Shown here piece by piece: positions 9,985-63,271 of a stretch of DNA of 64,000 nucleotides. The notes under the pieces are model-generated. The model was not told the origin of the DNA. It saw nothing but the letters and a program-made list of their open reading frames with translations, and searched no databases. Each line of letters starts with the position of its first letter. Position 1 is the stretch's first letter. The stretch is from the NCBI GenBank assembly GCA_047611805.1, contig JBLFWX010000014.1, positions 464 through 64,463 on the forward strand. Direction: 5' to 3'. Both the position numbers and the translations under genes were made by a program. Source of the DNA: Gammaproteobacteria bacterium. GTDB taxonomy: Bacteria; Pseudomonadota; Gammaproteobacteria; Ga0077536.

Positions 9985-10875
9985 ATGATTGAAGAACGAT
10001 GGGTAACGTTTTACAGCGAAGGATCGCGCATCGTTGGCAATCTGTTTTTGCCCGACGGCATCCGCGATGCGAAACCGGGACCTGGCATCGTTCTCTGCCA
10101 CGGCTTTACTGGCGTGCGGCAATTGTCATTGCGCGACTACGCGGAGCGTTTTGCTGCGGCAGGTTACGTTGCGCTGATCTTCGATTATCGCGGCTTCGGC
10201 GATAGCGAAGGACCTAAGTGGCGATTGATTCCGCTCGAGCAAGTCGACGATATTAGAAACGCCATTACATGGCTCGGCGCACAGCCGGAAGTGGATACGG
10301 AACAAATCGGCTTGTGGGGCACGAGTTTCGGCGGCGCCCATGTGCCCTACGTCGCCGGCGTTGATACGCGGGTCAAGGCCGCAGTTGCGCAAGTTGGATT
10401 CGATACCGGTGACCGTTTTTTGCTGAGCGTGCGCAACGATGTCGAGCGCGCCGAGCTTCAAACACAACTCGAGGCCGATCGTCGTCTACGAGTAACGCAA
10501 GGCAAGGGTATCGATATCGACCCGTTCGAACGTGCCTTAGCTAATCCAGAAGCGAGCGGTTTCATCGGCAGAGCTTTGCAAGCGCATCCACACATGCGCT
10601 GTCTGCTGTCGTGGCAGACCTGGGAGAAAACACTCGAATATCGCCCGCTCGATGTCGTCGACAAGATCGCACCACGCGCCTTGCTGTTAATAGCGGCAGA
10701 GCAAGACACGGTTTGCCCGCCTGCGGGTTATAAGGAACTGTATGAGCGTGCCGCCGAACCGAAAAAATTAATCAATCTACCCATCAGTCACTATGAGATC
10801 TACGAAGGCGAGTGGTTAGAAGAATCCGCGACGCAAGCCGTGCAGTGGTTCGACACCTATCTGCACTCCAAGTAA
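9985..10875 (+). CDS. alpha/beta hydrolase (dienelactone-hydrolase/peptidase S15-like)
   Basis: 296 aa. Has HGFTG, the nucleophile elbow GTSFGG and a C-terminal His region (ISHYE). Confidence 0.7.
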   Translation: MIEERWVTFYSEGSRIVGNLFLPDGIRDAKPGPGIVLCHGFTGVRQLSLRDYAERFAAAGYVALIFDYRGFGDSEGPKWRLIPLEQVDDIRNAITWLGAQPEVDTEQIGLWGTSFGGAHVPYVAGVDTRVKAAVAQVGFDTGDRFLLSVRNDVERAELQTQLEADRRLRVTQGKGIDIDPFERALANPEASGFIGRALQAHPHMRCLLSWQTWEKTLEYRPLDVVDKIAPRALLLIAAEQDTVCPPAGYKELYERAAEPKKLINLPISHYEIYEGEWLEESATQAVQWFDTYLHSK

Positions 10876-36420: not shown

Positions 36421-37140
36421 CTAGTTTGCCGCGCCACTACGAAACGCCTGTGCAGACAATCCTTGAGCTGTACCACTCGCATAGCTCGTGTACAGCGGCA
36501 AAAAATAATCAGCATCATGAGCAGTAAGACTAACGGATGGATGTTCAGCGACCACCTCGAACCAACGTAATAGACGCTTGCACTGGATCGGTATCTCAAG
36601 TCCTCGATAATAACTGAAAACGGCTTTTATACGTTCGAAAAATGGCCACATCGCCGCGTCGGCAAGTGACATTGTTGTTCCCATCCAATACGGCCCTGCC
36701 CCTTGGATTTCGCCGAGACGATGTTCCAAGAAGTTCAATCCCTCAATATTTTTCTCGCGCAAGACTTGCTGAGAGACAGCATCTTGTTCAAACAACAACT
36801 TGTACAACGTCGCAAGAAACACGCTATCGAAGTGTCGAATCTCGTTGCGCATGACCGCGCGTCCGCGTTCGTCGTTCGGACGCAACACCGCGCTGTCGAA
36901 ACTCGCGTCGAGATATTCATTCACGGTCGCCGATTCCCACAACAAAAAATCATCATGTCGAATGATCGGGACACGTTGGGTTGGTGAGAGGGCAACAAAC
37001 CAGTCTGGTTTGTTGTCGAGATCGATCTCAACAACATCGTGTTCGATCGCTTTCGCCCCGAGTACGATCCGCGTACGTTGGGCATAAGGGCAAATTTCGG
37101 AGGTATACAACGTTAGCTGTGTCATATGCTGCTCGATCAA
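36421..37140 (-). CDS. glutathione S-transferase family protein (Cys-type, omega/Grx2-like)
   Basis: LTLYTSEICPYAQRTRIVL...RVPIIRHDDFLLWESATVNEYL shows a thioredoxin-fold GST N-domain with a CPYA active site. Confidence 0.8.
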   Translation of the reverse strand: MIEQHMTQLTLYTSEICPYAQRTRIVLGAKAIEHDVVEIDLDNKPDWFVALSPTQRVPIIRHDDFLLWESATVNEYLDASFDSAVLRPNDERGRAVMRNEIRHFDSVFLATLYKLLFEQDAVSQQVLREKNIEGLNFLEHRLGEIQGAGPYWMGTTMSLADAAMWPFFERIKAVFSYYRGLEIPIQCKRLLRWFEVVAEHPSVSLTAHDADYFLPLYTSYASGTAQGLSAQAFRSGAAN

Positions 37141-43829: not shown

Positions 43830-44531
43830 TCAGCGGGGCTGGTACTGTTGTTCACCAAACATATTCTTGTAGGCCTCATCCGTTGGGTTTCCGACTTTCA
43901 TATCGTTCACCATTAGCGTGACACCACGCTTTACCGCCGGACGTTCGGCGACGATCGCGTTCCATCGTTTTACGTTCGGGTAATCATCAATATCGATGCG
44001 GTGTAGTTCCCATTGCTGCGGCATCGTCCAAGGATAAGTGGCGATGTCGGCAAGCGAATAGTCTCCGCCTGCGAGATAATCTTGGGTACTCAGCCGTTTA
44101 TCCATCACACCGTAAAGCCGCTTCGTCTCATTGTGATAGCGGGCTTTCGCGAACGGCACGTCCTCGGGGCAGTATCCTTGGAAATAGCCGTTCTGCCCGA
44201 ACATTGGTCCCACGCCACCCATCTGGAACATCAGCCACTGGATCATGTCGTAGCGTAGAGCCATATCGGTGGGCCAGAATTTTCCGGTTTTCTCGGCCAG
44301 ATAGAGCAGAATCGCGCCCGATTCGAAAACTTGATATGGGGAGCCATGAGGCCCTTCGGTATCAATGATCGCCGGCACCCGATTGTTCGGGTTCACGGCA
44401 AGAAAAGTCGGTTCGAATTGTTCCCCAGCGAGTATATTCACCGCAATGGTTTCGTATTCGAGCGCTACTTCTTCGAGCATGATGCTCGCTTTAAACCCGT
44501 TTGGCGTCGGCCAAAAATAGAGCCGGATCAT
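43830..44531 (-). CDS. yfcG: Nu-class glutathione S-transferase / GSH-disulfide reductase, YfcG-like
   Basis: Collinear with E. coli YfcG as I remember it: LYFWPTPNG.K, SPNN(R/K)(V/I)PAI(I/V)D, FESGAILLYLAEKTG, QW(L)(M/F).Q.GG.GPM.GQN, E(T)(K/Q)RLY.V(M/L).KRL, Y(S)(L/I)ADIA..PW. Confidence 0.8.
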   Translation of the reverse strand: MIRLYFWPTPNGFKASIMLEEVALEYETIAVNILAGEQFEPTFLAVNPNNRVPAIIDTEGPHGSPYQVFESGAILLYLAEKTGKFWPTDMALRYDMIQWLMFQMGGVGPMFGQNGYFQGYCPEDVPFAKARYHNETKRLYGVMDKRLSTQDYLAGGDYSLADIATYPWTMPQQWELHRIDIDDYPNVKRWNAIVAERPAVKRGVTLMVNDMKVGNPTDEAYKNMFGEQQYQPR

Positions 44532-45268
44532 AAGGTGCCGTTCTCCTGCTGCAGGGCTAACACGGCCTTCACGTTGTCCTGGCAGTACTTAGCGCTGTCG
44601 TCACCGCTAAAATCGATGTTGTAGTGCGACGTCACCGACGGTCGTTGGATCGCATCAATCCACCAAGCTTTTAGATTCGGGCGTGTGTCGAAGCAATCGA
44701 AATCGGGATAGAGGGGATCTTTCGCGTCATAGAACTTGGCACGAAAATCCATGTAACTAATCGCGTGGAGCATCGCGGCGTGTCCGATGTCGAATTGATT
44801 GAACCCACGTTTGCAGTACGCCTCAAGTTGATCAAGACCACGAATCGTTTTCGGCCAAATCCATTCGAAAAAAGCGATCCGTTGTTCCGACTCACTGTGC
44901 CAACCTTCCATCACCATTTGCACCGTCGTCTCGAACAGCGTGTCGGCGAGGGCCAAGCGGCTCACGGCTTCCCATCGATCCGGACCAGCAATCGGATACA
45001 AAGGTTTGCCCGACTTATTCAGCGCATCGAGACATTCGACGACGGCCTGTGATCCGAACACTACCTGCCCATCATCGAGTGCTAAGGTCGGAACTTTATC
45101 GAGTGGATTCAACGCAGCGATCGAATAAGCATCGCCTTGATCCTCACCGGCGCCGTTTTTAAACGGATAAGTCGCGACAAATATCATGTCGTCCCATAGT
45201 CCAGCTTCATGAACTGTGACGAGAACTTTATGGATGAAGGTGTGGAACGGCGAATAGAACAAACGCAT
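44528..45268 (-). CDS. GST-like protein
   Basis: 246 aa. The N-domain is GST-type (KVPTLALDDGQVVFGSQAVVECL) with a helical C-domain. Its stop overlaps the yfcG-like start by 4 nt. Confidence 0.65.
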   Translation of the reverse strand: MRLFYSPFHTFIHKVLVTVHEAGLWDDMIFVATYPFKNGAGEDQGDAYSIAALNPLDKVPTLALDDGQVVFGSQAVVECLDALNKSGKPLYPIAGPDRWEAVSRLALADTLFETTVQMVMEGWHSESEQRIAFFEWIWPKTIRGLDQLEAYCKRGFNQFDIGHAAMLHAISYMDFRAKFYDAKDPLYPDFDCFDTRPNLKAWWIDAIQRPSVTSHYNIDFSGDDSAKYCQDNVKAVLALQQENGTL

Positions 45269-47697: not shown

Positions 47698-50436
47698 ATG
47701 ACTTTTATTGTTCGCTTTACTGAATCCGACGCTGAACAACACGATTTAGTCGGCGGAAAAGCTACTAATCTGGGTCATTTAGTGAAGGCTGGATTCGCAG
47801 TGCCCGCCGGCTTCACGGTCACGACTTTGGCCTACGCTCAATTTATGAATACGAGCGGACTCCAGCGCGACGTGAACGAAATCGTCAACGCGATCGACTA
47901 TGGAGATGTAACGGGACTCGAAACGCACACGATCCGGATCCGGTCAATGATGCTCGACACGGATTTGCCAACCGAGGTCGCAGCAGACATCAGCCAAGCA
48001 TATCGCGAACTCGGCGAAGAATTACAAACCGATGCACGAAACTTATGCGCGGTGCGCTCCTCAGGAACCGCCGAAGATCTAGCCGACTCTTCTTTTGCCG
48101 GGTTGCATGATACCTACCTCGACATTGGCGGCATTGAGGAGATCCTTGCTGCCGTTAAACGTTGCTGGTCGTCGTTGTGGACTGCTCGCGCTACGGCTTA
48201 TCGGCATGATCGCGGCTTTGCGCATAACGATGCTCGCCTCGCGGTTGTTATTCAGAGCATGGTGGATGCCGATGTCGCTGGTGTCATGTTTACGGCGAAC
48301 CCCGTCACTGCCGCCGTTAATGAAATCGTCGTCAACGCGAGTTGGGGACTAGGCGAGAGCGTTGTATCCGGGATTGTCACGCCAGATGAATATGTGATTG
48401 CGCGCGGCAGTTTAAACATTAAGCAATGCCGTATCGGTAGCAAAGCATTGCGCATCGTGCGCGACGGCGTCCGCGGACAGGGGACAATCGAAGAAGCGGT
48501 TCCGACCAGCGAACGCGAAAAACTGACACTATCGGATCGCCAAGTGACGGAACTTGCTCACTTAGGCCAAAGAGTCGCGGCGCACTTCGGCGACCTCCCA
48601 CAGGATATTGAATGGGCGTTAGCTGACGACTCCTTTTATCTGCTCCAAGCGCGCCCAGTGACTGGCGTGGAATTTTCCTGGGACGAAGATCTCGAGTATT
48701 GGCAATTTCAGAACGAGGCCGACGATACGATCTACACACGCGCGTGGGCGGATGAATATTGGAATGGTCCCATTACGCCGCTGCACTACTCCTATCGCGC
48801 TAAAGAACTCAGCGATTGCCATCACACAGCGCAGACCTTGTACGGTAATCCCGACATCGCCAACATGCGCACCTGGAAGTACTACAAAAGTGAAGCCTAC
48901 TTCGCCTCGAACATGGAACGGGAATGGGCGGTCCAATCTCTGCCGCAGAATCTGCGTATTCCAGGGTCGCTGAACAAACTACCTCCGAGTTGGTGGCCGG
49001 CCGTTCAACGCGAGCCGTTCTCGTGGTTTAGATACGCGTGGATTTTCGCTCGAATAAAAATTTTAAACGACCGCTCAGCGCCGTTCAAGTTCTTCCGCGT
49101 GTTCGACGATCGAATCGAAAACCGCAGAGACGAAGCCAACGGAATGAGCAATGACGCACTGCGAGTGCTCCCGGACAACGAATTTAAGGCGCACATTTTA
49201 GATCGCCTAGAGATTTTCAAACAGGCGGATGACGATCTATGGGGCGCGTTTTTTATCTACGCACCGTTTGCTCTAGGGCTTTTGGGCGATCTTTTGGGTC
49301 GCTGGTACGATGGTGACGCGGCATGGGCATTCGCCGATTTATGCTCTGGGCTGCCAGATCAAACCATCACCTTGAAAGAGAACCATGAGCTCTGGAAGTT
49401 CGGTGAACGTCTGAAAGCATCACCGGCATTGCGACAGTTGGTCGATGAACACCAGGGCGTCGAATTTTTTAACGCGCTAGAGAAGCATGAAGAAGGGCGC
49501 GCTTTTCTAGCCGATTACCGACCCTGGTTGGCGCGGCGCGGTCATCGCGGGCACGCGGATCGGGACGGCTGGTTTCCGCGCCGCGGCGACGATCCTATGA
49601 TCGATTACAACGCTTTCAAGGCGCTGGTCTCGGCACGCGAAAGTGTCGACCCGCTGCGCATGGAAGAAAACCTGAAAAACAAAAGAGTTACGCGCGAGGC
49701 GGAAGTGCACCTCAGTATACGCAAACAAACGTTCGGTCTCGCCAAACTAAAACTATTCAAGCTCGTGCATGCTTACTCGCTAGAGTTTCTGAAATTTCGT
49801 GATAACGAACGAGAATATCTCGACAACCTAACTTATACGCAACGACGATGCTTCCTTGAACTCGGCCGTCGCCTGCACGAGCGTAAACTGATCGCAGACA
49901 GTGGTGATGTGTGGTTCCTTGGGGTAGAAGAAAATTTCGCCTTGCTCGATGCGAGCGCGAAGCTGCCACTCACGGAAGCTAAAATTGCCGGTCGCAAACG
50001 CAACTTCTTTCGCTTCCGCAATCGCGAAGTAAACTTACCCAATTATCTAAATCCAAACGCGACACCGGCACTGCCTGGTGAGCAGATAGGTGTGCCCTGC
50101 GCTGCTGAAGATGATTCACTTGTCCTAGCCGGCGCAGGCACGAGTCAAGGAAACGTTACTGGTCGGGCAAGAGTGATAAAAAACCTTGAGGAGATCGGCT
50201 CGCTTGTGCCCGGTGACATACTCGTTTGCAACAGCACGGATCCTGGCTGGACCCCGGCATTTCTGGTCATCAGCGGACTCGTTTTAGAAACCGGCGGCAT
50301 GCTGTCGCACGGTGCTTGCTTATCGCGAGAGTACGGTCTGCCGGCCGCCGCAGTCCCGCAGGCGATGAGCCGCATCGTCGATGGCTCGACGATCACAGTC
50401 GACGGCACCTTGGGACTCGTGCGGCTAGCAGTTTGA
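47698..50436 (+). CDS. PEP-utilising dikinase with rifampin-phosphotransferase-like architecture
   Basis: 912 aa. The N-terminal ATP-grasp PPDK_N blocks are VGGKATNLGHL and VRSSGTAEDL. The extreme C-terminus carries the swivel phosphohistidine domain TDPGWTP...ETGGMLSHGACLSREYGLPA. No PEP/pyruvate TIM-barrel domain is present. Confidence 0.75.
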   Translation: MTFIVRFTESDAEQHDLVGGKATNLGHLVKAGFAVPAGFTVTTLAYAQFMNTSGLQRDVNEIVNAIDYGDVTGLETHTIRIRSMMLDTDLPTEVAADISQAYRELGEELQTDARNLCAVRSSGTAEDLADSSFAGLHDTYLDIGGIEEILAAVKRCWSSLWTARATAYRHDRGFAHNDARLAVVIQSMVDADVAGVMFTANPVTAAVNEIVVNASWGLGESVVSGIVTPDEYVIARGSLNIKQCRIGSKALRIVRDGVRGQGTIEEAVPTSEREKLTLSDRQVTELAHLGQRVAAHFGDLPQDIEWALADDSFYLLQARPVTGVEFSWDEDLEYWQFQNEADDTIYTRAWADEYWNGPITPLHYSYRAKELSDCHHTAQTLYGNPDIANMRTWKYYKSEAYFASNMEREWAVQSLPQNLRIPGSLNKLPPSWWPAVQREPFSWFRYAWIFARIKILNDRSAPFKFFRVFDDRIENRRDEANGMSNDALRVLPDNEFKAHILDRLEIFKQADDDLWGAFFIYAPFALGLLGDLLGRWYDGDAAWAFADLCSGLPDQTITLKENHELWKFGERLKASPALRQLVDEHQGVEFFNALEKHEEGRAFLADYRPWLARRGHRGHADRDGWFPRRGDDPMIDYNAFKALVSARESVDPLRMEENLKNKRVTREAEVHLSIRKQTFGLAKLKLFKLVHAYSLEFLKFRDNEREYLDNLTYTQRRCFLELGRRLHERKLIADSGDVWFLGVEENFALLDASAKLPLTEAKIAGRKRNFFRFRNREVNLPNYLNPNATPALPGEQIGVPCAAEDDSLVLAGAGTSQGNVTGRARVIKNLEEIGSLVPGDILVCNSTDPGWTPAFLVISGLVLETGGMLSHGACLSREYGLPAAAVPQAMSRIVDGSTITVDGTLGLVRLAV

Positions 50437-51607: not shown

Positions 51608-52825
51608 CTATGCCGCAAGTGGCTGCTGTCTAACTAACGGCACGACTAGAAAGCCGGCAGTTTTCATTGCTTGCAGATCTTGGGCCATACACACGGCGCG
51701 TAGTTGGTGGAATACCTGAGCGGTTTTCGTTTCGTTCCAAAACCAATCATCTAGCTCCCCAGGAGTTGGGTTTCCGGGCTGCGCAGAAGCGCTTTCAAGC
51801 ATAAATGCCTTGAGATCTTCAGCGCGTAGGCGCACGGCATCGGCGAGTGACCGATCGGCGTCGGGACTGTCAGGAAGTTCGTCGCCGAACATACTCGCGA
51901 TGAATGCCGCGATCTGTTCGAGAGATTCCGCCACATCACTGACCGTCGTCCGACCACGCGCTTCGACTGCCCGCTCGTACCAGGGTTTCATCGCCAATAT
52001 TTCGTCGATTAAGGTTCGCTCTACTGCAGCCGCGCCGGTTAAGGTTTCTTCCGATCGTGCGAAACTAATCGGGCAACTCCACAGCTCTTGCACCATGGCA
52101 GCTTGTGGCTCGTCGTCCGGAAAATCTTCGAGAACGGGGCCTTCGTCAGACTCGAGCAAGGACAAGGCTTGGTGCACAACCCTCCTCTGGAACGCAGGAT
52201 CGTTAGGCGCACCACACGGTCGGCCTAAATCAAACGGCACCCACAACGCACGCGGCGGTGCGATCTTTTCGGCGTGCAATCGGATTAAAGTGATTGCTGT
52301 TGTCGCGATGCCTTGTTTTTCGAACAAATGTCCAAGCCCGCACACGGCGCGCGTACAGAAGGGTCACACCGGCGCCAAGAGTAACGCGGTCACTGCATCT
52401 TTCTTTAGCAACGGTGCGAGGCGTTCGACGCTCGGTGCAAGTAAGGTCGGATCGGTGGAACCCATTAACGAGTAATGGAAATCGGCAACGGATCCGATAA
52501 CGCCTTCGTCCGCGAGTTCGCGTAAGCGATCGATTGGAAACACAACATTCAAATCTTGTTGGAAACCGGTGCGATCGTAGTTCGGCGAAACGTGGCTCAT
52601 AACAAGATCACCAGCGGCCGTATCGCCTGGGATCACTCGGTAATCGGACGCGCCAATTTCGAATGCTTGGTCGCCGCGTTTAAACAACGCGGCAGTTGAA
52701 ATTATTGCAACCCGACGCTCACTGAGTGGGCCACCTTTAACGAACGCCGGATCGTCGAAAACCGGACACTCAAGCGCTTCCAAGGGTTTGCGTAAACTGT
52801 CGTCTAATGATTCTAAACGCGCCAT
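51608..52825 (-). CDS. PrdB/GrdB-family (glycine/sarcosine/betaine/D-proline reductase selenoprotein B-like) protein with in-frame UGA, candidate selenoprotein
   Basis: ORFs 52364..52825 and 51608..52345 are in frame. One TGA (52364-52366) lies in LLAPV-U-PFCTRAVCG. Family blocks are LVMSHVSPNYD, VFPIDRLRELADEGVIG and HYSLMG. A hairpin sits at 52337-52359. Confidence 0.65.
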
Positions 52826-53101
52826 ATCGGCCTCCGTTATTAAAATTATTTTCGTTCTAAGCGCAGCATACGACTAATGATATCGCGGTTTCTTCTCAAG
52901 ATGGACGTGGTAAAAACTGCTCATCACCGGCGACTCCGGTAACTATCGAGGCGCTGAATAATTCACGCACAAGACCGCCGAAGTAGACGAATCGTAATGC
53001 GGGTTAGCGCATGCAGCCAATCGGCAATTATTTGATCGTTTTGTGTCCTGCTTTGAAGCAGCTATTTGCGCGCTCCAACCTTCGACGCTGTCGGTATCGG
53101 C

Positions 53102-58160: not shown

Positions 58161-59438
58161 TTAATCGCGCCAGCCGCGACCATTATATTCATCGCGTAAT
58201 TGTGGCGCCACTTGATGTAGCTCGATCCCCAATTTGGGCAGCACTTTTTCGACAAGTAGTTCATTACTTTTCAACAAGCCATCAATTGGCGCCGGGCCTG
58301 CCGCAATCCAAAGAACCAAAGTATCTGTTTTGAAATCATCGAGGACTTTTTCTAGTTGTCGAACGACGTTATCAACCGTGCCACAGATCGAGTAGCCTCG
58401 CTCGCGGATCGTTGACGGATGATTGCGGATCACGCCCTGCTCGCCTGGCCGGCGCAAGGCTTCGTTTAGGCCGAACCAGTCGTGCCACCGCGTCCAAATA
58501 AAGCCTAGGCCGCGTTCCATAATCGCAAACGCTTCAGCATCCGTATCGGCAACCACCACCTCGCGAAAGTGTCCGACGCTCTCCCCCCAGGCGATATCAC
58601 GTCCTGCCTCCTGTGCGGCCTTGTAATAGAGATCGATACACGCTTTAGCGTTCTCCACGATCGGCGTGAAAATAACCGGTGTGACATTTTCGCGCGCGGC
58701 CCACTCGATGGTCGCCGGGCTCGTCGTAAATGGCGTAAACGTTTCTACTGTTTCAGGCTTTTGCAGAGTGAGTGGCGCGATGCCAATTTGGCGCAAATTT
58801 CCGTTTGCATCGACCATTCCTGGCGCCATCGTTTGCGTTGCGGGATGATCCCAAACGATACCGTCCGGCGGTATCTGCCAATGTTTCCCCTCGTGGCGGA
58901 ACAGGGGCTCTGACCAGGCGCGTCGAATGATTTCGTAGTGCTCGTTGAACAGTTCGCGATTCTGCCTGTCGTGTTCAACAAATTCTGGATCGGTCGGCTG
59001 AGTCGAGTAGGCATTCAGCTTTTGCCCGACTGTCGCAACATGACGCGACTGATAGCCCCGCGCGAAGCCAGCAATCATGCGACCCTCGGAGAAATGATCC
59101 AGCATCGCAAGATCTTCAGCCAGCAGTAGAGGATTACGCGCAGGCAACACATTGCCCATCTGACCGATGCGTAAGCGGCGAGTTTGCATCGCTGCCCAAC
59201 TACCTAGCATTACTGGATTGTTCGATAGCTCGAGGCCTTCAACGTGGAAATGATGTTCAGAAAATGCAGCAAAATCGAAACCGAGATCCTCGATTTGACG
59301 TAATACGCGGGAGGTGTCGCGTAAGCCGGCTTGGTAGTAATTGGGATTTTGCCCGGCGAATCCTTCTTCGTATTGTTCGGGGCTTGCGCCCGCGCTCGGC
59401 AACAGAAACGCGCCAAGACGAAATTTACCACTCCCCAT
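58161..59438 (-). CDS. LLM-class flavin-dependent oxidoreductase
   Basis: About 425 aa counted from ATG 59438. Blocks LGFDFAAFSEHHF, LAEDLAMLDHFSEGRMIAGFARG. The 158 upstream codons of the listed ORF overlap the divergent promoter region and look non-coding. Confidence 0.75.
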   Translation of the reverse strand: MGSGKFRLGAFLLPSAGASPEQYEEGFAGQNPNYYQAGLRDTSRVLRQIEDLGFDFAAFSEHHFHVEGLELSNNPVMLGSWAAMQTRRLRIGQMGNVLPARNPLLLAEDLAMLDHFSEGRMIAGFARGYQSRHVATVGQKLNAYSTQPTDPEFVEHDRQNRELFNEHYEIIRRAWSEPLFRHEGKHWQIPPDGIVWDHPATQTMAPGMVDANGNLRQIGIAPLTLQKPETVETFTPFTTSPATIEWAARENVTPVIFTPIVENAKACIDLYYKAAQEAGRDIAWGESVGHFREVVVADTDAEAFAIMERGLGFIWTRWHDWFGLNEALRRPGEQGVIRNHPSTIRERGYSICGTVDNVVRQLEKVLDDFKTDTLVLWIAAGPAPIDGLLKSNELLVEKVLPKLGIELHQVAPQLRDEYNGRGWRD

Positions 59439-59774
59439 TCGTGAATTCCCAAGATTCTGTCGAAGCCACAGCATAGTCGAAGCAAGTCCGAGATCAAACC
59501 GAGGACAGGCAGTGCGCCTTGTCCTAGAATACATCGTGTTGCCAGTGGCTTCAGCTGTGATTCCGTCGAGCTTGCTGCCCGGCGGTCGGACGATGTGACG
59601 GGGCGCGATCCTTCGGCAATGGACAACTTTAAATCGTACCAAGCAGCCGTGCATCGATAGCGCGTTGCGGGAAGGAAAAGTGCCATTACATCTAGCCTGT
59701 CTGGCGAGAGACATGGCACGGCAATGATTTAACCAAGTGCGATCCTCGGTCGCATACTGAACAGGACAGCAACA

Positions 59775-60878
59775 ATGGAAATAGGACTGCAATTTATTTT
59801 TCAAAATACGCATCCAGGTCTCTCTGATGCGGACATGATGCGCCGGGAAACCGAAGTCGCACTCCTCGCCGAAGACGTCGGCATGGATTTTCTGCTGCTG
59901 CCGGAACACCATTTCGATCCGAACTATTCCATGATGCCGGACAATTTACAGTGGCTTTCCTATCTTGCCGGTAAAACTAACCGAATTAAGCTTGGCACTG
60001 GGGCAATTATTTTACCGTGGCACGACAACCCGACACGGCTGGCTGAAAAGATCGCCATGCTGCAAGTCGTACTCGGCGATCGTTTTATGCTTGGCTTTGG
60101 TCGTGGCTTGGCGCGCGAGGAGTATCGGGCGTTCGGCGTAGACATGAATACCGCACGCGAACGTTTTGATCAATCCGCTGAGATCATCTTGGACATTCTT
60201 GAAACCGGCATCGCCGAATACGACACGCCGCATTTCAAACAATCGCGCACCACCGTGACGCCGAAGCCACTGCATGGCTATCGCGACCGCGGTTTTCTGT
60301 CTGTCGCGATGACGCCAGACTCAGGCGTTGCAGCGGCCAATCTCGGTGCAACAATGATGTCGTTCGTACAGCTCCCATGGGCAGACCACAACGCGGCCGT
60401 GAACGCCTGGCGGACCCGCTTCAAAGAGCAGCATCCGAACAAAGTGCCTGGTGCGCCGGTCTTTTCCGATTTCACCTACTGCCACAAAGATGCCAAAGTT
60501 GCCGAGAAAGTAGCTCGCGAGTACCTCTCGAAATATTATATGAGTGTCATCCGGCATTACGATTTCGACGGTTCGCATTGGGGTGAAACCAAGGGTTATC
60601 AGGCTTACCAAGCAGCCGCGAGTGCGATAAAAGAAATTGGCCTCGACGCAGCGTGCGAGGGCTTTGTGCAAAACCAGGCATGGGGCACACCCGAACAAAT
60701 CATCGAAAAATGGTCGGCAAGGGTGGCCGTAACTGGCGAACTGCGGCCGGCGATGGCAGTGTCTTACGCCGGCATGCCGTTCGATTTAGTCAAAGACAGC
60801 CTGCGACTTATCGGCTCAGAAATTGTGCCTGTATTGCAGAAGCTCGGCGGCGGCGAAGCGCAAAGCGCGGTGGCTTGA
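59775..60878 (+). CDS. LLM-class flavin-dependent monooxygenase (luciferase-like)
   Basis: 367 aa. Blocks VGMDFLLLPEHHF, KLGTGAIILPWHDNPTRLAEKIAMLQ, LGFGRG. Confidence 0.8.
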   Translation: MEIGLQFIFQNTHPGLSDADMMRRETEVALLAEDVGMDFLLLPEHHFDPNYSMMPDNLQWLSYLAGKTNRIKLGTGAIILPWHDNPTRLAEKIAMLQVVLGDRFMLGFGRGLAREEYRAFGVDMNTARERFDQSAEIILDILETGIAEYDTPHFKQSRTTVTPKPLHGYRDRGFLSVAMTPDSGVAAANLGATMMSFVQLPWADHNAAVNAWRTRFKEQHPNKVPGAPVFSDFTYCHKDAKVAEKVAREYLSKYYMSVIRHYDFDGSHWGETKGYQAYQAAASAIKEIGLDAACEGFVQNQAWGTPEQIIEKWSARVAVTGELRPAMAVSYAGMPFDLVKDSLRLIGSEIVPVLQKLGGGEAQSAVA

Positions 60879-61688: not shown

Positions 61689-62333
61689 CTACGGGACGAT
61701 TGTCGGCTGGTCGCCTTCCCGCCATTTCGGATACTTCATCATCACCGAGGCAAACAATTGAGACGCGAGTAAGCCCGTCAACCACGTTTGCAATCTTGTG
61801 TAGTCCGTCGAATCAAACCACGCTCTGTCCGTGTTCGCAAACTGCCGGATAAACGGCATGATTGCAAAATCGGCCAGGCAAGGGCGATTGCCGAACAGAA
61901 ATTCGTGTTCGGCAAGCCGGTTATTCAAGTCCGCGATAAACCGCTCAGATTCTTGTCGATGATGTAGGGGGTCGACGTCGACGTAGCGGTTAGCGTATTT
62001 GTAACGGTCTAAATGTTCCTTGAACTCGCCATCGTTGATCGCGATGAGCGCGTGCATTTGCGCAACGCGCGCGGATGACGGGCTTAACCAGCTGTCTGGA
62101 TCGTTCTGGGTCAAGGCCCAGATCATCGCATCAAGGCTCTCGTCGATGACGGCCCCGGGGCCTAAAACGAGTACTGGTACGGAGGCCTTAGGCGAGTAGT
62201 TAAGCATGGAGATCGGTTTGTCTCGCAGCATGACTTCTCTCAGTTCGCACGTAATGCCGGCGCTCCATAGCGCTAGCCGGGTACGCATTGCGTACGGGCA
62301 TCGCCGAAAACTATAGAGCACGGGCAAGCTCAT
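61689..62333 (-). CDS. GST/glutaredoxin-2-like protein (CPYA active site)
   Basis: The start is set at ATG 62333, which overlaps the trhO stop as ATGA. The N-terminus reads LYSFRRCPYAMRTRLAL...SVPVLVL....IDESLDAM. Confidence 0.75.
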   Translation of the reverse strand: MSLPVLYSFRRCPYAMRTRLALWSAGITCELREVMLRDKPISMLNYSPKASVPVLVLGPGAVIDESLDAMIWALTQNDPDSWLSPSSARVAQMHALIAINDGEFKEHLDRYKYANRYVDVDPLHHRQESERFIADLNNRLAEHEFLFGNRPCLADFAIMPFIRQFANTDRAWFDSTDYTRLQTWLTGLLASQLFASVMMKYPKWREGDQPTIVP

Positions 62334-63271
62334 TTCTGATCGGGGTTCGGGCGCTTGCTTTTGGGCGACTGAAAGTGAGATTGATTTCGTCCCTTTGCTA
62401 GCTGAACTTGCTTTTGGCGTTCTGCAAATCCAGCTTTCTGTTCGTCTGTTGTACGTCCATGGCAATGAGCACAAGCGACTCCTTCGATATACAACGAGTC
62501 TTGTTTATCTTCTTTCCCGAGCGCCGTTCCGCACCCACGACACAGCTCAAATCGACCGGGTGCTAGATCGTGATTAACGGAAACTCGGTCGTCGAACACA
62601 TAACACTCGCCCGCCCATCGACTTTCTTCGACAGGGATCTCCTCAAGATATTTCAGGATCCCGCCTTCAAGCTGATAGACCTCTGAAAACCCTTGCTGCA
62701 AAAGGTACGCGCTCGCCTTCTCACAGCGGATCCCGCCCGTGCAAAACATTGCGATCCGTGTGTCCGCGGATAGGCCCTCAGCCCGAGAGAGCCATTGCGG
62801 AAACTCGCCAAATGATTCGAGGCGCGGATCAATCGAACCTTCGAAGGTACCCAGATCCGTCTCATAGGTATTTCTGGTATCGATTAACACCACATCCGGT
62901 TCATTTATCAGTGCGTTCCAATCAGACGGTTTCACATGAACGCCAGTTGCCTCACCAGGGGCGACATCGGGCACGCCCAAGGTGACGATCTCTTGTTTGA
63001 GACGAATTTTCAGTCGCACGAATGGAATTCTTTCGACCCAGCTTTCTTTGTGCTTGAGATCGAGGAAACGAGGATCACTGCGCAAAAATGTGAGCACGCT
63101 ACGCAGCCCATCTTCCAATCCGCATAGGGTTCCGTTGATACCTTCCGGCGCCAGTAATATCGTGCCTTGGATATCTTCCTCACGGCACTTTAACGTCAAG
63201 GCATCACGTAGCGCCTCTATCTCTAGAAGCGGCGTGAACTGATAAAAAGTTGCAACAAGGAAACGGGCCAT
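62330..63271 (-). CDS. trhO: rhodanese-domain tRNA uridine(34) hydroxylase TrhO (YceA/UPF0176)
   Basis: 313 aa. Has FYQFT, LAPEGINGT, the rhodanese loop CTGGIRCEKA and the C-terminal C..C....C.HC cluster. Confidence 0.85.
   Translation of the reverse strand: MARFLVATFYQFTPLLEIEALRDALTLKCREEDIQGTILLAPEGINGTLCGLEDGLRSVLTFLRSDPRFLDLKHKESWVERIPFVRLKIRLKQEIVTLGVPDVAPGEATGVHVKPSDWNALINEPDVVLIDTRNTYETDLGTFEGSIDPRLESFGEFPQWLSRAEGLSADTRIAMFCTGGIRCEKASAYLLQQGFSEVYQLEGGILKYLEEIPVEESRWAGECYVFDDRVSVNHDLAPGRFELCRGCGTALGKEDKQDSLYIEGVACAHCHGRTTDEQKAGFAERQKQVQLAKGRNQSHFQSPKSKRPNPDQK

Follow-up and report, generated by a model that had tools for sequence, protein, structure and literature searches.

Two adjacent open reading frames (ORFs) on the minus strand of the 64,000-nt gammaproteobacterial stretch analysed here (contig JBLFWX010000014.1, positions 464 to 64,463; hereafter the window) appear to be the halves of one gene in which an in-frame UGA is decoded as selenocysteine (Sec). 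The predicted product belongs to a very widespread family of two-domain proteins related to PrdB of clostridial D-proline reductase (Kabisch et al. 1999, as cited in PMC1088965) and would act self-contained, without PrdA, GrdA or GrdE; we put the probability of this reading at about 0.82. A Sec-decoded, PrdB/GrdB-like protein had been proposed for this locus in an earlier note made from the DNA letters alone, and that central proposal is supported by the placement of the TGA in the Sec/Cys column of homologous proteins, by the presence of the TGA in 80 of 80 related loci, and by the linkage of sel genes in relatives. Judged from these sequence comparisons, Sec decoding is very probable at the level of the family; for the window organism specifically our confidence is somewhat lower, because sel genes were looked for only within its 64-kb window.

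One reading frame across an in-frame UGA

Direct translation yields a single minus-strand frame, 52825..51608, whose 405 codons (Sec154 included) run from an ATG (52825..52823) to a TAG stop (51610..51608) and whose sole internal stop is the TGA at 52366..52364. A Shine-Dalgarno-like GGAGG, read from the sequence, lies 5 nt 5' of the ATG (52831..52835, minus strand), and the N-terminus MARLESL fits the family consensus MVRLxDL. The ORF caller splits the complete gene (51608..52825) into 52364..52825 (153 aa) and 51608..52345 (245 aa), the latter with an internal GTG start; translation at these coordinates confirmed what the earlier note had described, namely two ORFs in a shared frame parted by one TGA and six sense codons. 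The residues around the stop, ...LLLAPV-[TGA]-PFCTRAVCGLGH..., are likewise the same as in that note. Codon 154 (52364..52366, minus strand), read as Sec, opens a U-P-F-C redox motif (Sec154...Cys157, 52355..52366), within which, together with the preceding P152, the residues U154, P155 and C157 show no variation among 85 family sequences. The UPFC motif and the additional Cys that had been pointed out beyond it are both present, but the latter, Cys162, is not a family feature, its position being occupied by Gly in 69 of 78 family copies.

Elsewhere in the window TGA serves as an ordinary stop, as had been claimed: it ends 17 other predicted genes, and the stops among 48 greedy gene calls in this sequence of 53.5% G+C are TAA (20), TGA (18) and TAG (10). 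A screen of the window for further TGA-split genes found none with a redox-motif context, and a promoter and terminator scan gave nothing beyond expectation.

Conservation of the TGA was assessed in the best 80 of at least 589 confirmed loci (L001-L080; one genome per species was scanned), which derive from Gamma- and Alphaproteobacteria, Desulfobacterota, Dehalococcoidia and others. These loci supplied 85 family copies, of which the first wobble and covariation set held 78 and the set used after additions 84. The TGA occupies the PV-[ ]-PxC column in 80 of 80 loci (85 copies), with both halves of the protein conserved; orthologues that genuinely end at the TGA, which the earlier note had named as evidence against Sec, were thus not encountered among them. 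A protein search retrieved 815 relatives, and most of the best 120 were proteins of about 245 aa that match the post-TGA half, which indicates that gene callers halt at the same TGA in many genomes. In the public records examined, the genes are split into an N-terminal half with a PF07355 match, precomputed in those records, and an unannotated C-terminal half. Independent metagenome assemblies of closer relatives (85% and about 70% DNA identity) carry the same TGA followed by an identical stretch of about 30 nt, so that sequencing error is ruled out. Several genomes carry at least two family copies. Tandem Sec paralogues occur in L047 (TGA at 10460 and 11697), in L054 and L062 (10460 and 11689) and in L074 (10460 and 11691).

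Profile searches were carried out with Cys put in at codon 154. The best-matching NCBIfam model, TIGR04483 (PrdB), aligned with aa 26-225 (E = 1.2e-27; model positions 18-219 of 238), and the match crosses the TGA, in agreement with the PrdB/GrdB-like blocks that had been recognised by eye in the N-terminal part. Two reference prdB genes were compared: that of Peptoclostridium acidaminophilum, annotated as Sec-containing and carrying its own in-frame TGA (..FTAG-U-GTCHRS..), and that of Enterococcus gilvus, which has Cys in place of Sec and sits in a prdC-prdA-x-prdB operon, a positive control for the prd arrangement. In a MAFFT alignment, codon 154 falls exactly in the Sec/Cys column of both references, so the TGA is indeed at the Sec position of a U-x-x-C motif. 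Cys-containing orthologues, another check suggested beforehand, were readily found: 11 of 13 aligned homologues have Cys in this column, P0015 showing a gap and P0039 being a fragment. The full-length Cys-bearing proteins (P0004, P0011-P0014, P0016, P0017, P0020, P0022, P0024 and P0041; 369-436 aa, 40-60% identity) are uninterrupted and display the motif PV-C-PxC(T/S)R, so that the family motif can be written PV-U/C-PxC.

Genes of the Sec pathway adjoin the family gene in a number of relatives. In L005, L008, L011 and L046, selA-selB and tRNA-Sec are adjacent to it, the tRNA-Sec calls of ARAGORN being confirmed by Rfam RF01852 at 70-80 bits, and selD lies near it in L002 (immediately upstream), L003, L008, L042, L046 and L065. 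Overall, 8 of 80 loci have Sec genes or tRNA-Sec no farther than 10 kb away (P about 1.5e-6 under a generous chance expectation of 1%). Among the genome-derived relatives, L002 and L003 rank second and third in closeness to the window protein. The clusters look like co-inherited modules of the Sec trait plus a selenoprotein. Their Sec genes lie at L002 8851-9912, L005 6312-9877, L011 12175-15703, L046 6381-9799 and L008 3201-7797. Two further ARAGORN calls, a 98-nt 'tRNA-?(SeC|Leu)' in L003 (816-913, minus strand) and a 95-nt 'tRNA-Ala(tgc)' in L065 (16454-16548, minus strand), had no Rfam support and are probably false positives.

A conserved hairpin downstream of the UGA

The family RNA 3' of the UGA reads CCN NNN UGY ACG CGC GCC GUN GGC GSG CUN. 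Within it, a 17-nt hairpin that follows the UGA at 11 nt (52336..52352, minus strand; consensus GCGCGCC-GUN-GGCGSGC) is conserved in the family and is the best candidate for the Sec insertion sequence (SECIS). Its loop, which contains GU, lies 18 nt from the UGA, inside the range published for bacterial SECIS elements (a small apical loop that contains G, at 16-37 nt from the UGA; PMC10778597, PMC1088965). In the window version, GCGCGC-CGUGU-GCGGGC, the top pair is open and the loop is the pentaloop CGUGU, because of the Gly-to-Cys162 replacement (GGC to UGC).

The earlier note had drawn a different, 9-bp hairpin. Its stem does exist (52337..52359, minus strand; 9-10 bp, loop CGC/GCGCC, four G.U pairs, 13-14 nt from UGA to loop) and is the minimum-free-energy fold, but the conserved SECIS lies in the other register, 52352..52336, which overlaps it and is mutually exclusive with it. 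Folding energy was dropped as support for the earlier hairpin: at -20.7 kcal/mol vs a shuffled mean of -21.6 (z = 0.32) it is no better than shuffled sequence, and energy alone is uninformative. This register is thermodynamically favoured in the window sequence only, where the UGC codon of Cys162 also stabilises it. In L045, which has the same UGC codon, only the family register can form, with two compensatory pairs.

Codon choice speaks for the family register. Third-base entropy at the stem codons +4, +5, +6, +8 and +9 is 0.41, 0.34, 0.52, 0.39 and 0.20 bits, vs 1.4-1.9 bits at equally conserved fourfold-degenerate residues elsewhere and 1.54 bits at the Val codon of the loop (+7). The frozen codons are not those that the genes prefer, the mean probability of the observed codon being 0.25-0.41 under each gene's own usage. 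All of the frozen wobble bases pair with amino-acid-constrained partners in the family register (G21-C37, Y24-G34, C27-G31, Y33-G25 and G36-C22), and the freezing of G21, Y24 and G36 is unexplained by the alternative one.

Among the 84 sequences, pairing in the family hairpin is maintained in 87.9% of cells. Pair 22-36 is C-G in 77 sequences, U-A in three and A-U in one; in the U-A state, G36 has changed to A, a synonymous Ala change that matches an Arg-to-Cys codon change. C-G and U-G are likewise seen at pair 23-35, and A-U at pair 21-37. Doubly changed cells number 7, a value reached by only 1 of 500 shuffles, vs 2.0 expected. This signal emerged only after the addition of six loci with a substituted Arg codon; with the first 78 sequences neither register was significant, because the hairpin sequence is nearly invariant. 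For the earlier register, covariation was no better than in shuffles, and its central A19-U31 pair is available in 6 of 84 sequences.

Homologues that have replaced Sec by Cys bear on the same point. The Thr and Arg codons are variable in the distant Cys-form clade (ACC, TCG, TCT; CGA, CGG, CGC), where only 1-5 of 7 pairs form. P0004 (L085 6001-7110), a Cys form (TGC) nested in the Sec clade, retains ACG CGC GCC GTG GGC GGG CTG, which looks like a fossil SECIS left by a recent Sec-to-Cys conversion. A search with RNA covariance models, which had been suggested for the UGA region, gave no SECIS and no relevant family, whether Rfam was run on the whole window at the gathering threshold or on 52250-52420 at a permissive one. 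Like the SECIS of Escherichia coli fdhF and the bSECISearch consensus, the family element is an in-ORF hairpin right after the UGA with a small G-containing loop at a distance within the accepted range; it differs in its very small size (7 bp, in many cases with a 1x1 mismatch), in consisting almost entirely of G and C, in being fixed through codon choice in the peptide T-R-A-V-G-(G/A)-L, and in having no Rfam family. On balance, the family register is better supported than the alternative, and SelB in the window lineage may use either of the two folds. The second copies in L054, L062 and L074 carry a different hairpin, GCGCGCGGUC-GGU-GCGGCYGCGC, a few nt 3' of the family hairpin.

A PrdB-like protein with a second domain

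The window protein consists of a PrdB-like alpha/beta domain (aa 26-225, 52151..52750, minus strand), delimited by the matches to TIGR04483 and Pfam GRDB, and a family-specific all-helical C-terminal domain (aa 230-405, 51611..52138) without a Pfam or NCBIfam match. The AlphaFold2 model (alignment A1; mean pLDDT 83.8, pTM 0.81) likewise has two domains, alpha/beta at 1-235 and all-helical at 265-394, and Sec154 comes after strand 147-151, at the N-terminal end of helix 156-170. The C-terminal domain retrieved 479 proteins at E<=1e-3 in a phmmer search of 1.84 billion representatives. The best 150 of these are 94-315 aa long, and in most of them the domain spans about residues 70-240 of a protein of about 245 aa, which is the layout of the post-TGA fragment; on these best matches, therefore, the domain occurs in no other architecture. 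Invariant in the 85 family sequences, in addition to the four residues of the redox centre, are H78, D84, R85, G87, P97, R100, L150 and A160 in the N-terminal part, P191, R192, L194, G201, P203, G205, Q213, L223 and P230 further on, and E275, W282, D337, P350 and W361 in the C-terminal domain. H78, D84, P97, R100, U154, C157, R192, G201, G205 and Q213 are common to genuine PrdB.

The relation to PrdB is close enough for homology over about 200 residues of the alpha/beta domain, with Sec or Cys at the same column of the U-x-x-C motif and the motifs SH..(Y/F)D, FP(I/L)DR, PR and G.PN..Q in common. However, identity is about 30%, and the TIGR04483 score of 96.8 bits is well below the equivalog cutoff of 300; the window family has a two-residue insertion and its own R85, is found in aerobes, and has no PrdA pyruvoyl proprotein or PrdC nearby. 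PrdB, a single-domain protein of about 240 aa, runs about 85 aa beyond its own Sec and stops near residue 240 of the window protein, and the conserved helical extension therefore amounts to about 165 residues rather than the 250 or so estimated earlier. The models of selenoprotein B of the glycine, sarcosine and betaine reductases (GrdB, GrdF and GrdH; TIGR01917, TIGR01918, NF040794 and NF040795) gave 39.6-50.3 bits, under their cutoffs of 65-800 bits, and matched only at model positions of about 271-426. These proteins share the superfamily and the UxxC Sec position with the window protein, which lacks the GrdB N-terminal domain of about 270 aa, so that only the last 70 or so of 347 Pfam positions match, and which has no grdA, grdE, grdC, grdD or trx gene near it. 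Pfam GRDB (PF07355) was matched at 28.7 bits, over the gathering score of 22, by aa 82-150 (model 275-344 of 347). By these scores the window protein is assigned to the Pfam GRDB superfamily and is predicted not to be a D-proline reductase.

Proteins of this description have been counted before. In the Sargasso Sea (2005) and Global Ocean Sampling (GOS, 2008) surveys, 'proline reductase PrdB' (UxxC, pfam07355) is given among the most abundant selenoproteins of the oxic surface ocean, with 42 Sec genes in the former and 235, along with 110 Cys homologues, in the latter (PMC1088965, PMC2398784), and a later survey puts proline reductase at 6.4% of marine selenoprotein genes (PMC9402790). The delta-1 symbiont of Olavius was reported to lack GrdA and GrdB and to have five selenoproteins of the 'proline reductase' type (PMC1976440); L009 derives from this symbiont, which accordingly carries the window family. 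The marine family of the Sargasso Sea, GOS, Tara/GOS 2021 and Olavius 2007 studies resembles the window family in its UxxC motif, its pfam07355 match, its Sec and Cys forms and its multiple copies in the Olavius symbiont, and we infer from these described features, rather than from the sequences, that the two are the same. The difference lies in interpretation: in their passages on this family, the surveys treat it as proline reductase and are silent on the missing PrdA, the extra domain and a family-specific SECIS. Reviews of 2022 and 2026 list D-proline reductase only. A full-text literature search ('PrdB-like', 'GrdB-like', PF07355) found no paper on a PrdA-less family; its 'GrdB-like' matches concern fluoroacetate reduction in Synergistota. 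If the two families are the same, the window gene does not found a new family and is therefore a new member of a computationally predicted, already known one, listed since 2005. What is new here is that the family falls outside the PrdB and GrdB models, that it has a conserved second domain and no partner, that its SECIS is defined, and that its records are systematically split.

Genomic context, alternative readings and possible function

The window gene belongs to a cluster of aerobic catabolic genes with which it shares its strand. Upstream are genes for a luciferase-like monooxygenase, an FAA-family hydrolase, a glyoxalase-fold dioxygenase, an FAD aromatic-ring hydroxylase, a short-chain dehydrogenase/reductase (SDR) and an acyltransferase; the adjacent genes also include an ABM monooxygenase and more than one FAD aromatic-ring hydroxylase; downstream is an alpha/beta-hydrolase; and farther out are three glutathione S-transferases (GSTs), a BKACE protein, a flavin monooxygenase and transporters. 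The hydroxylases, dioxygenase and monooxygenases adjoining the gene agree with the earlier description of a neighbourhood rich in O2-dependent oxygenases, and no prdA, prdC, grdA, grdE or thioredoxin gene was found among the neighbours within 8 kb, also as described. The gene had accordingly been called an orphan; the partner is indeed absent, but this is a trait of a large family and not peculiar to the window locus, since a Pfam census of 148 immediate neighbours (74 upstream, 74 downstream) contained no PrdA, PrdC, GrdA, GrdE or thioredoxin either.

Conserved neighbours, which the earlier note had suggested looking for, are lacking among these 148. The census counted 82 Pfam families upstream and 73 downstream, and blastp clustering of neighbours revealed nothing in more than 12 of 75 loci. 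The commonest were SDR, a very common family (12 of 75 loci), and a MEDS+HTH regulator (8 of 74, in Desulfobacterota); Pyr_redox_2 occurs in 4 of 74, mostly in one alphaproteobacterial lineage. The upstream block is common to the window and L094 (88% identity), and the flanks differ even among close relatives. The downstream alpha/beta-hydrolase was rejected as a conserved partner, being present in L001 and L098 and absent from L094 and L096.

Several features of the surroundings may be recorded separately. The three GST genes lie within 16 kb of the window gene (36421-37140, 43830-44531 and 44528-45268, all minus strand), and GSTs recur near the Cys-form sister clade described below (L087, L091, L093) and at the edges of L094 and L096. 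At 47698-50436 (plus strand), opposite in orientation and between the alpha/beta-hydrolase and an FAD hydroxylase, is a 912-aa protein with PPDK_N and a C-terminal PEP-utilising mobile domain and no recognised central or catalytic domain. The luciferase-like monooxygenase at 58161-59912 (minus strand) is 583 aa long, its Pfam domain covers only residues 190-520, and its L094 orthologue has 425 aa, so the called start may lie too far upstream, or the window ORF may encode additional N-terminal sequence. The UPF0176 and rhodanese protein at 62330-63271 (minus strand) is TrhO/YceA-like and, despite its rhodanese domain, unrelated to selenouridine synthase.

A more regular context was seen in a Cys-form sister clade, represented by P0011, P0014, P0016, P0020 and P0022 and named 'glycine/sarcosine/betaine reductase selenoprotein B family protein' by NCBI. 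Its members share the two-domain architecture at 40-45% identity, carry the motif PV-C-PNC(T/S)R, and differ in having Cys for Sec, a longer C-terminus and no SECIS constraint. A TauD-family Fe(II)/2-oxoglutarate dioxygenase gene adjoins the sister-clade gene in 5 of 5 cases, with a gap of 2-13 nt or an overlap in P0011, P0014, P0016 and P0020 and with one VTT-domain gene between them in P0022, whereas in the Sec clade TauD accounts for just 1 of 148 neighbours. The sister-clade gene and TauD possibly form a conserved two-enzyme module, which would provide a functional lead. Sulfatases, enoyl-CoA hydratases and GSTs are also found near these genes. Coordinates for this genomic context are L087 7306-8160, L091 3569-4423, L092 3414-4265, L093 7286-8143, L089 196-1062 and L090 4307-5275.

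Several observations weigh against a Sec-decoded, self-contained enzyme. No tRNA gene, selA, selB or selD was found in the 64-kb window, which covers only part of the genome. In the window the family hairpin is weakened by the Cys162 codon, and the register of the earlier note is more stable there by 3.7 kcal/mol (-11.6 vs -7.9 kcal/mol). Covariation support is modest, as the variable sequences are few and mutually related, and the shuffles ignore relatedness, which may inflate the signal. A PDB sequence-profile search and a Foldseek search with the confident model returned nothing at E<=1e-3. Finally, the functional part of the reading is argued by analogy only, and the neighbourhoods are heterogeneous.

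Among other explanations, the one that fares best, though we consider it unlikely, is that the protein serves small-molecule-independent redox or selenium handling, for example by supplying or protecting the Sec pathway as a selenenyl-sulfide carrier, and is not a catabolic enzyme; the linkage to selD and selAB would in that case be functional. Placement of a UxxC motif at the start of a helix is characteristic of thiol-disulfide oxidoreductases, and Sec-pathway genes are the sole recurrent class of neighbours (the 8 of 80 loci noted above, with selD immediately upstream in L002). Selenoprotein genes, however, often travel with sel genes by co-inheritance, and 90% of the loci have no such linkage. 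The charged invariant residues common to PrdB (H78, D84, R100 and R192) suggest substrate binding instead, and the several paralogues per genome, the tandem pairs and the five copies in the Olavius delta-1 symbiont (PMC1976440) fit substrate-diversified enzymes.

It is very improbable that the gene encodes the PrdB subunit of a true D-proline (or glycine/betaine) reductase whose PrdA, GrdE or GrdA lies elsewhere in the genome. PrdB is the best NCBIfam match, the Sec column and several motifs are in common, and the literature label is 'proline reductase' (PMC1088965, PMC2398784, PMC9402790); yet the PrdB score is less than the equivalog cutoff by a wide margin and those of GrdB, GrdF and GrdH are far under theirs, none of the 148 neighbours is PrdA, PrdC, GrdA or GrdE, although the operon of a real prdB has the order prdC-prdA-prdB, the protein carries a further conserved domain of 165 aa, and the family occurs in aerobic Alpha- and Gammaproteobacteria, with the window copy among O2-dependent oxygenases. 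Hardly any weight can be given, either, to readthrough of UGA-154 by a near-cognate Trp, Cys or Arg tRNA in an organism lacking the Sec pathway. The absence of sel genes and tRNA-Sec from the window, which spans only part of the genome, would agree with it, but the SECIS-like nucleotides, which would erode if SelB were lost, are perfectly kept in the lineage, selD lies beside the gene in the close relatives L002 and L003, and a lineage that had lost Sec would be expected to fix TGC or TGT, as P0004 did. That the TGA is a true stop, whether of a pseudogene, of the first of two genes or through a sequencing or assembly error, is effectively refuted: public gene callers do give two ORFs and the earlier hairpin is no stabler than shuffled sequence, but independent assemblies and 80 of 80 loci of several phyla agree on this TGA, purifying selection acts strongly on both halves, the Cys-form homologues are continuous, the PrdB fold crosses the TGA, and the GTG 'start' of the second half is an internal Val of a helix.

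For a Sec-decoded, self-contained enzyme, the following scheme may be envisaged. UGA-154 would be recoded by SelB and tRNA-Sec, recruited through the short GC-rich in-ORF hairpin, to give a product of 405 residues and about 44 kDa, presumably a self-contained selenol/thiol enzyme. A small substrate may be held by the invariant H78, D84, R85, R100 and R192, and the selenolate of Sec154 would attack its electrophilic centre, the bond concerned being, by analogy with PrdB and GrdB, probably one that joins carbon to a heteroatom and neighbours a carboxylate or carbonyl. Cys157 would then resolve the adduct to a selenenyl-sulfide, which a general cellular thiol system could re-reduce. By the same analogy, the enzyme would most likely catalyse reductive cleavage at a bond in the alpha position to a carboxylate or carbonyl. 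The multi-copy, context-variable spread of the family is more easily reconciled with a catabolic enzyme diversified in substrate than with a housekeeping redox carrier. More tentatively still, and with a good deal less confidence than we have in Sec decoding, the combination of a PrdB-type Sec/Cys centre with the helical domain might permit self-sufficient reductive carbon-heteroatom cleavage without a pyruvoyl subunit in aerobic catabolism, coupled to TauD in the Cys-form sister clade.

For annotation, the consequence is direct. In the records examined, the gene is broken into a 'GRDB' fragment and an unannotated 'hypothetical protein' of about 245 aa, and the family comprises at least 589 loci in species-representative genomes; a rule combining PV-U-PxC with the hairpin ACG-CGC-GCC-GUN-GGC-GSG-CU would repair such split annotations. 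In survey tallies the family is entered under 'proline reductase' and makes up 6-7% of marine selenoprotein genes, and a sizeable part of ocean selenium use is probably misassigned, because the family is without every other component of proline reductase. With the invariant residues, the domain limits and the TauD-linked sister clade defined, the question of the substrate becomes approachable. If the protein is indeed a self-sufficient selenoenzyme, it would represent a new enzyme class derived from Stickland-type reductases.

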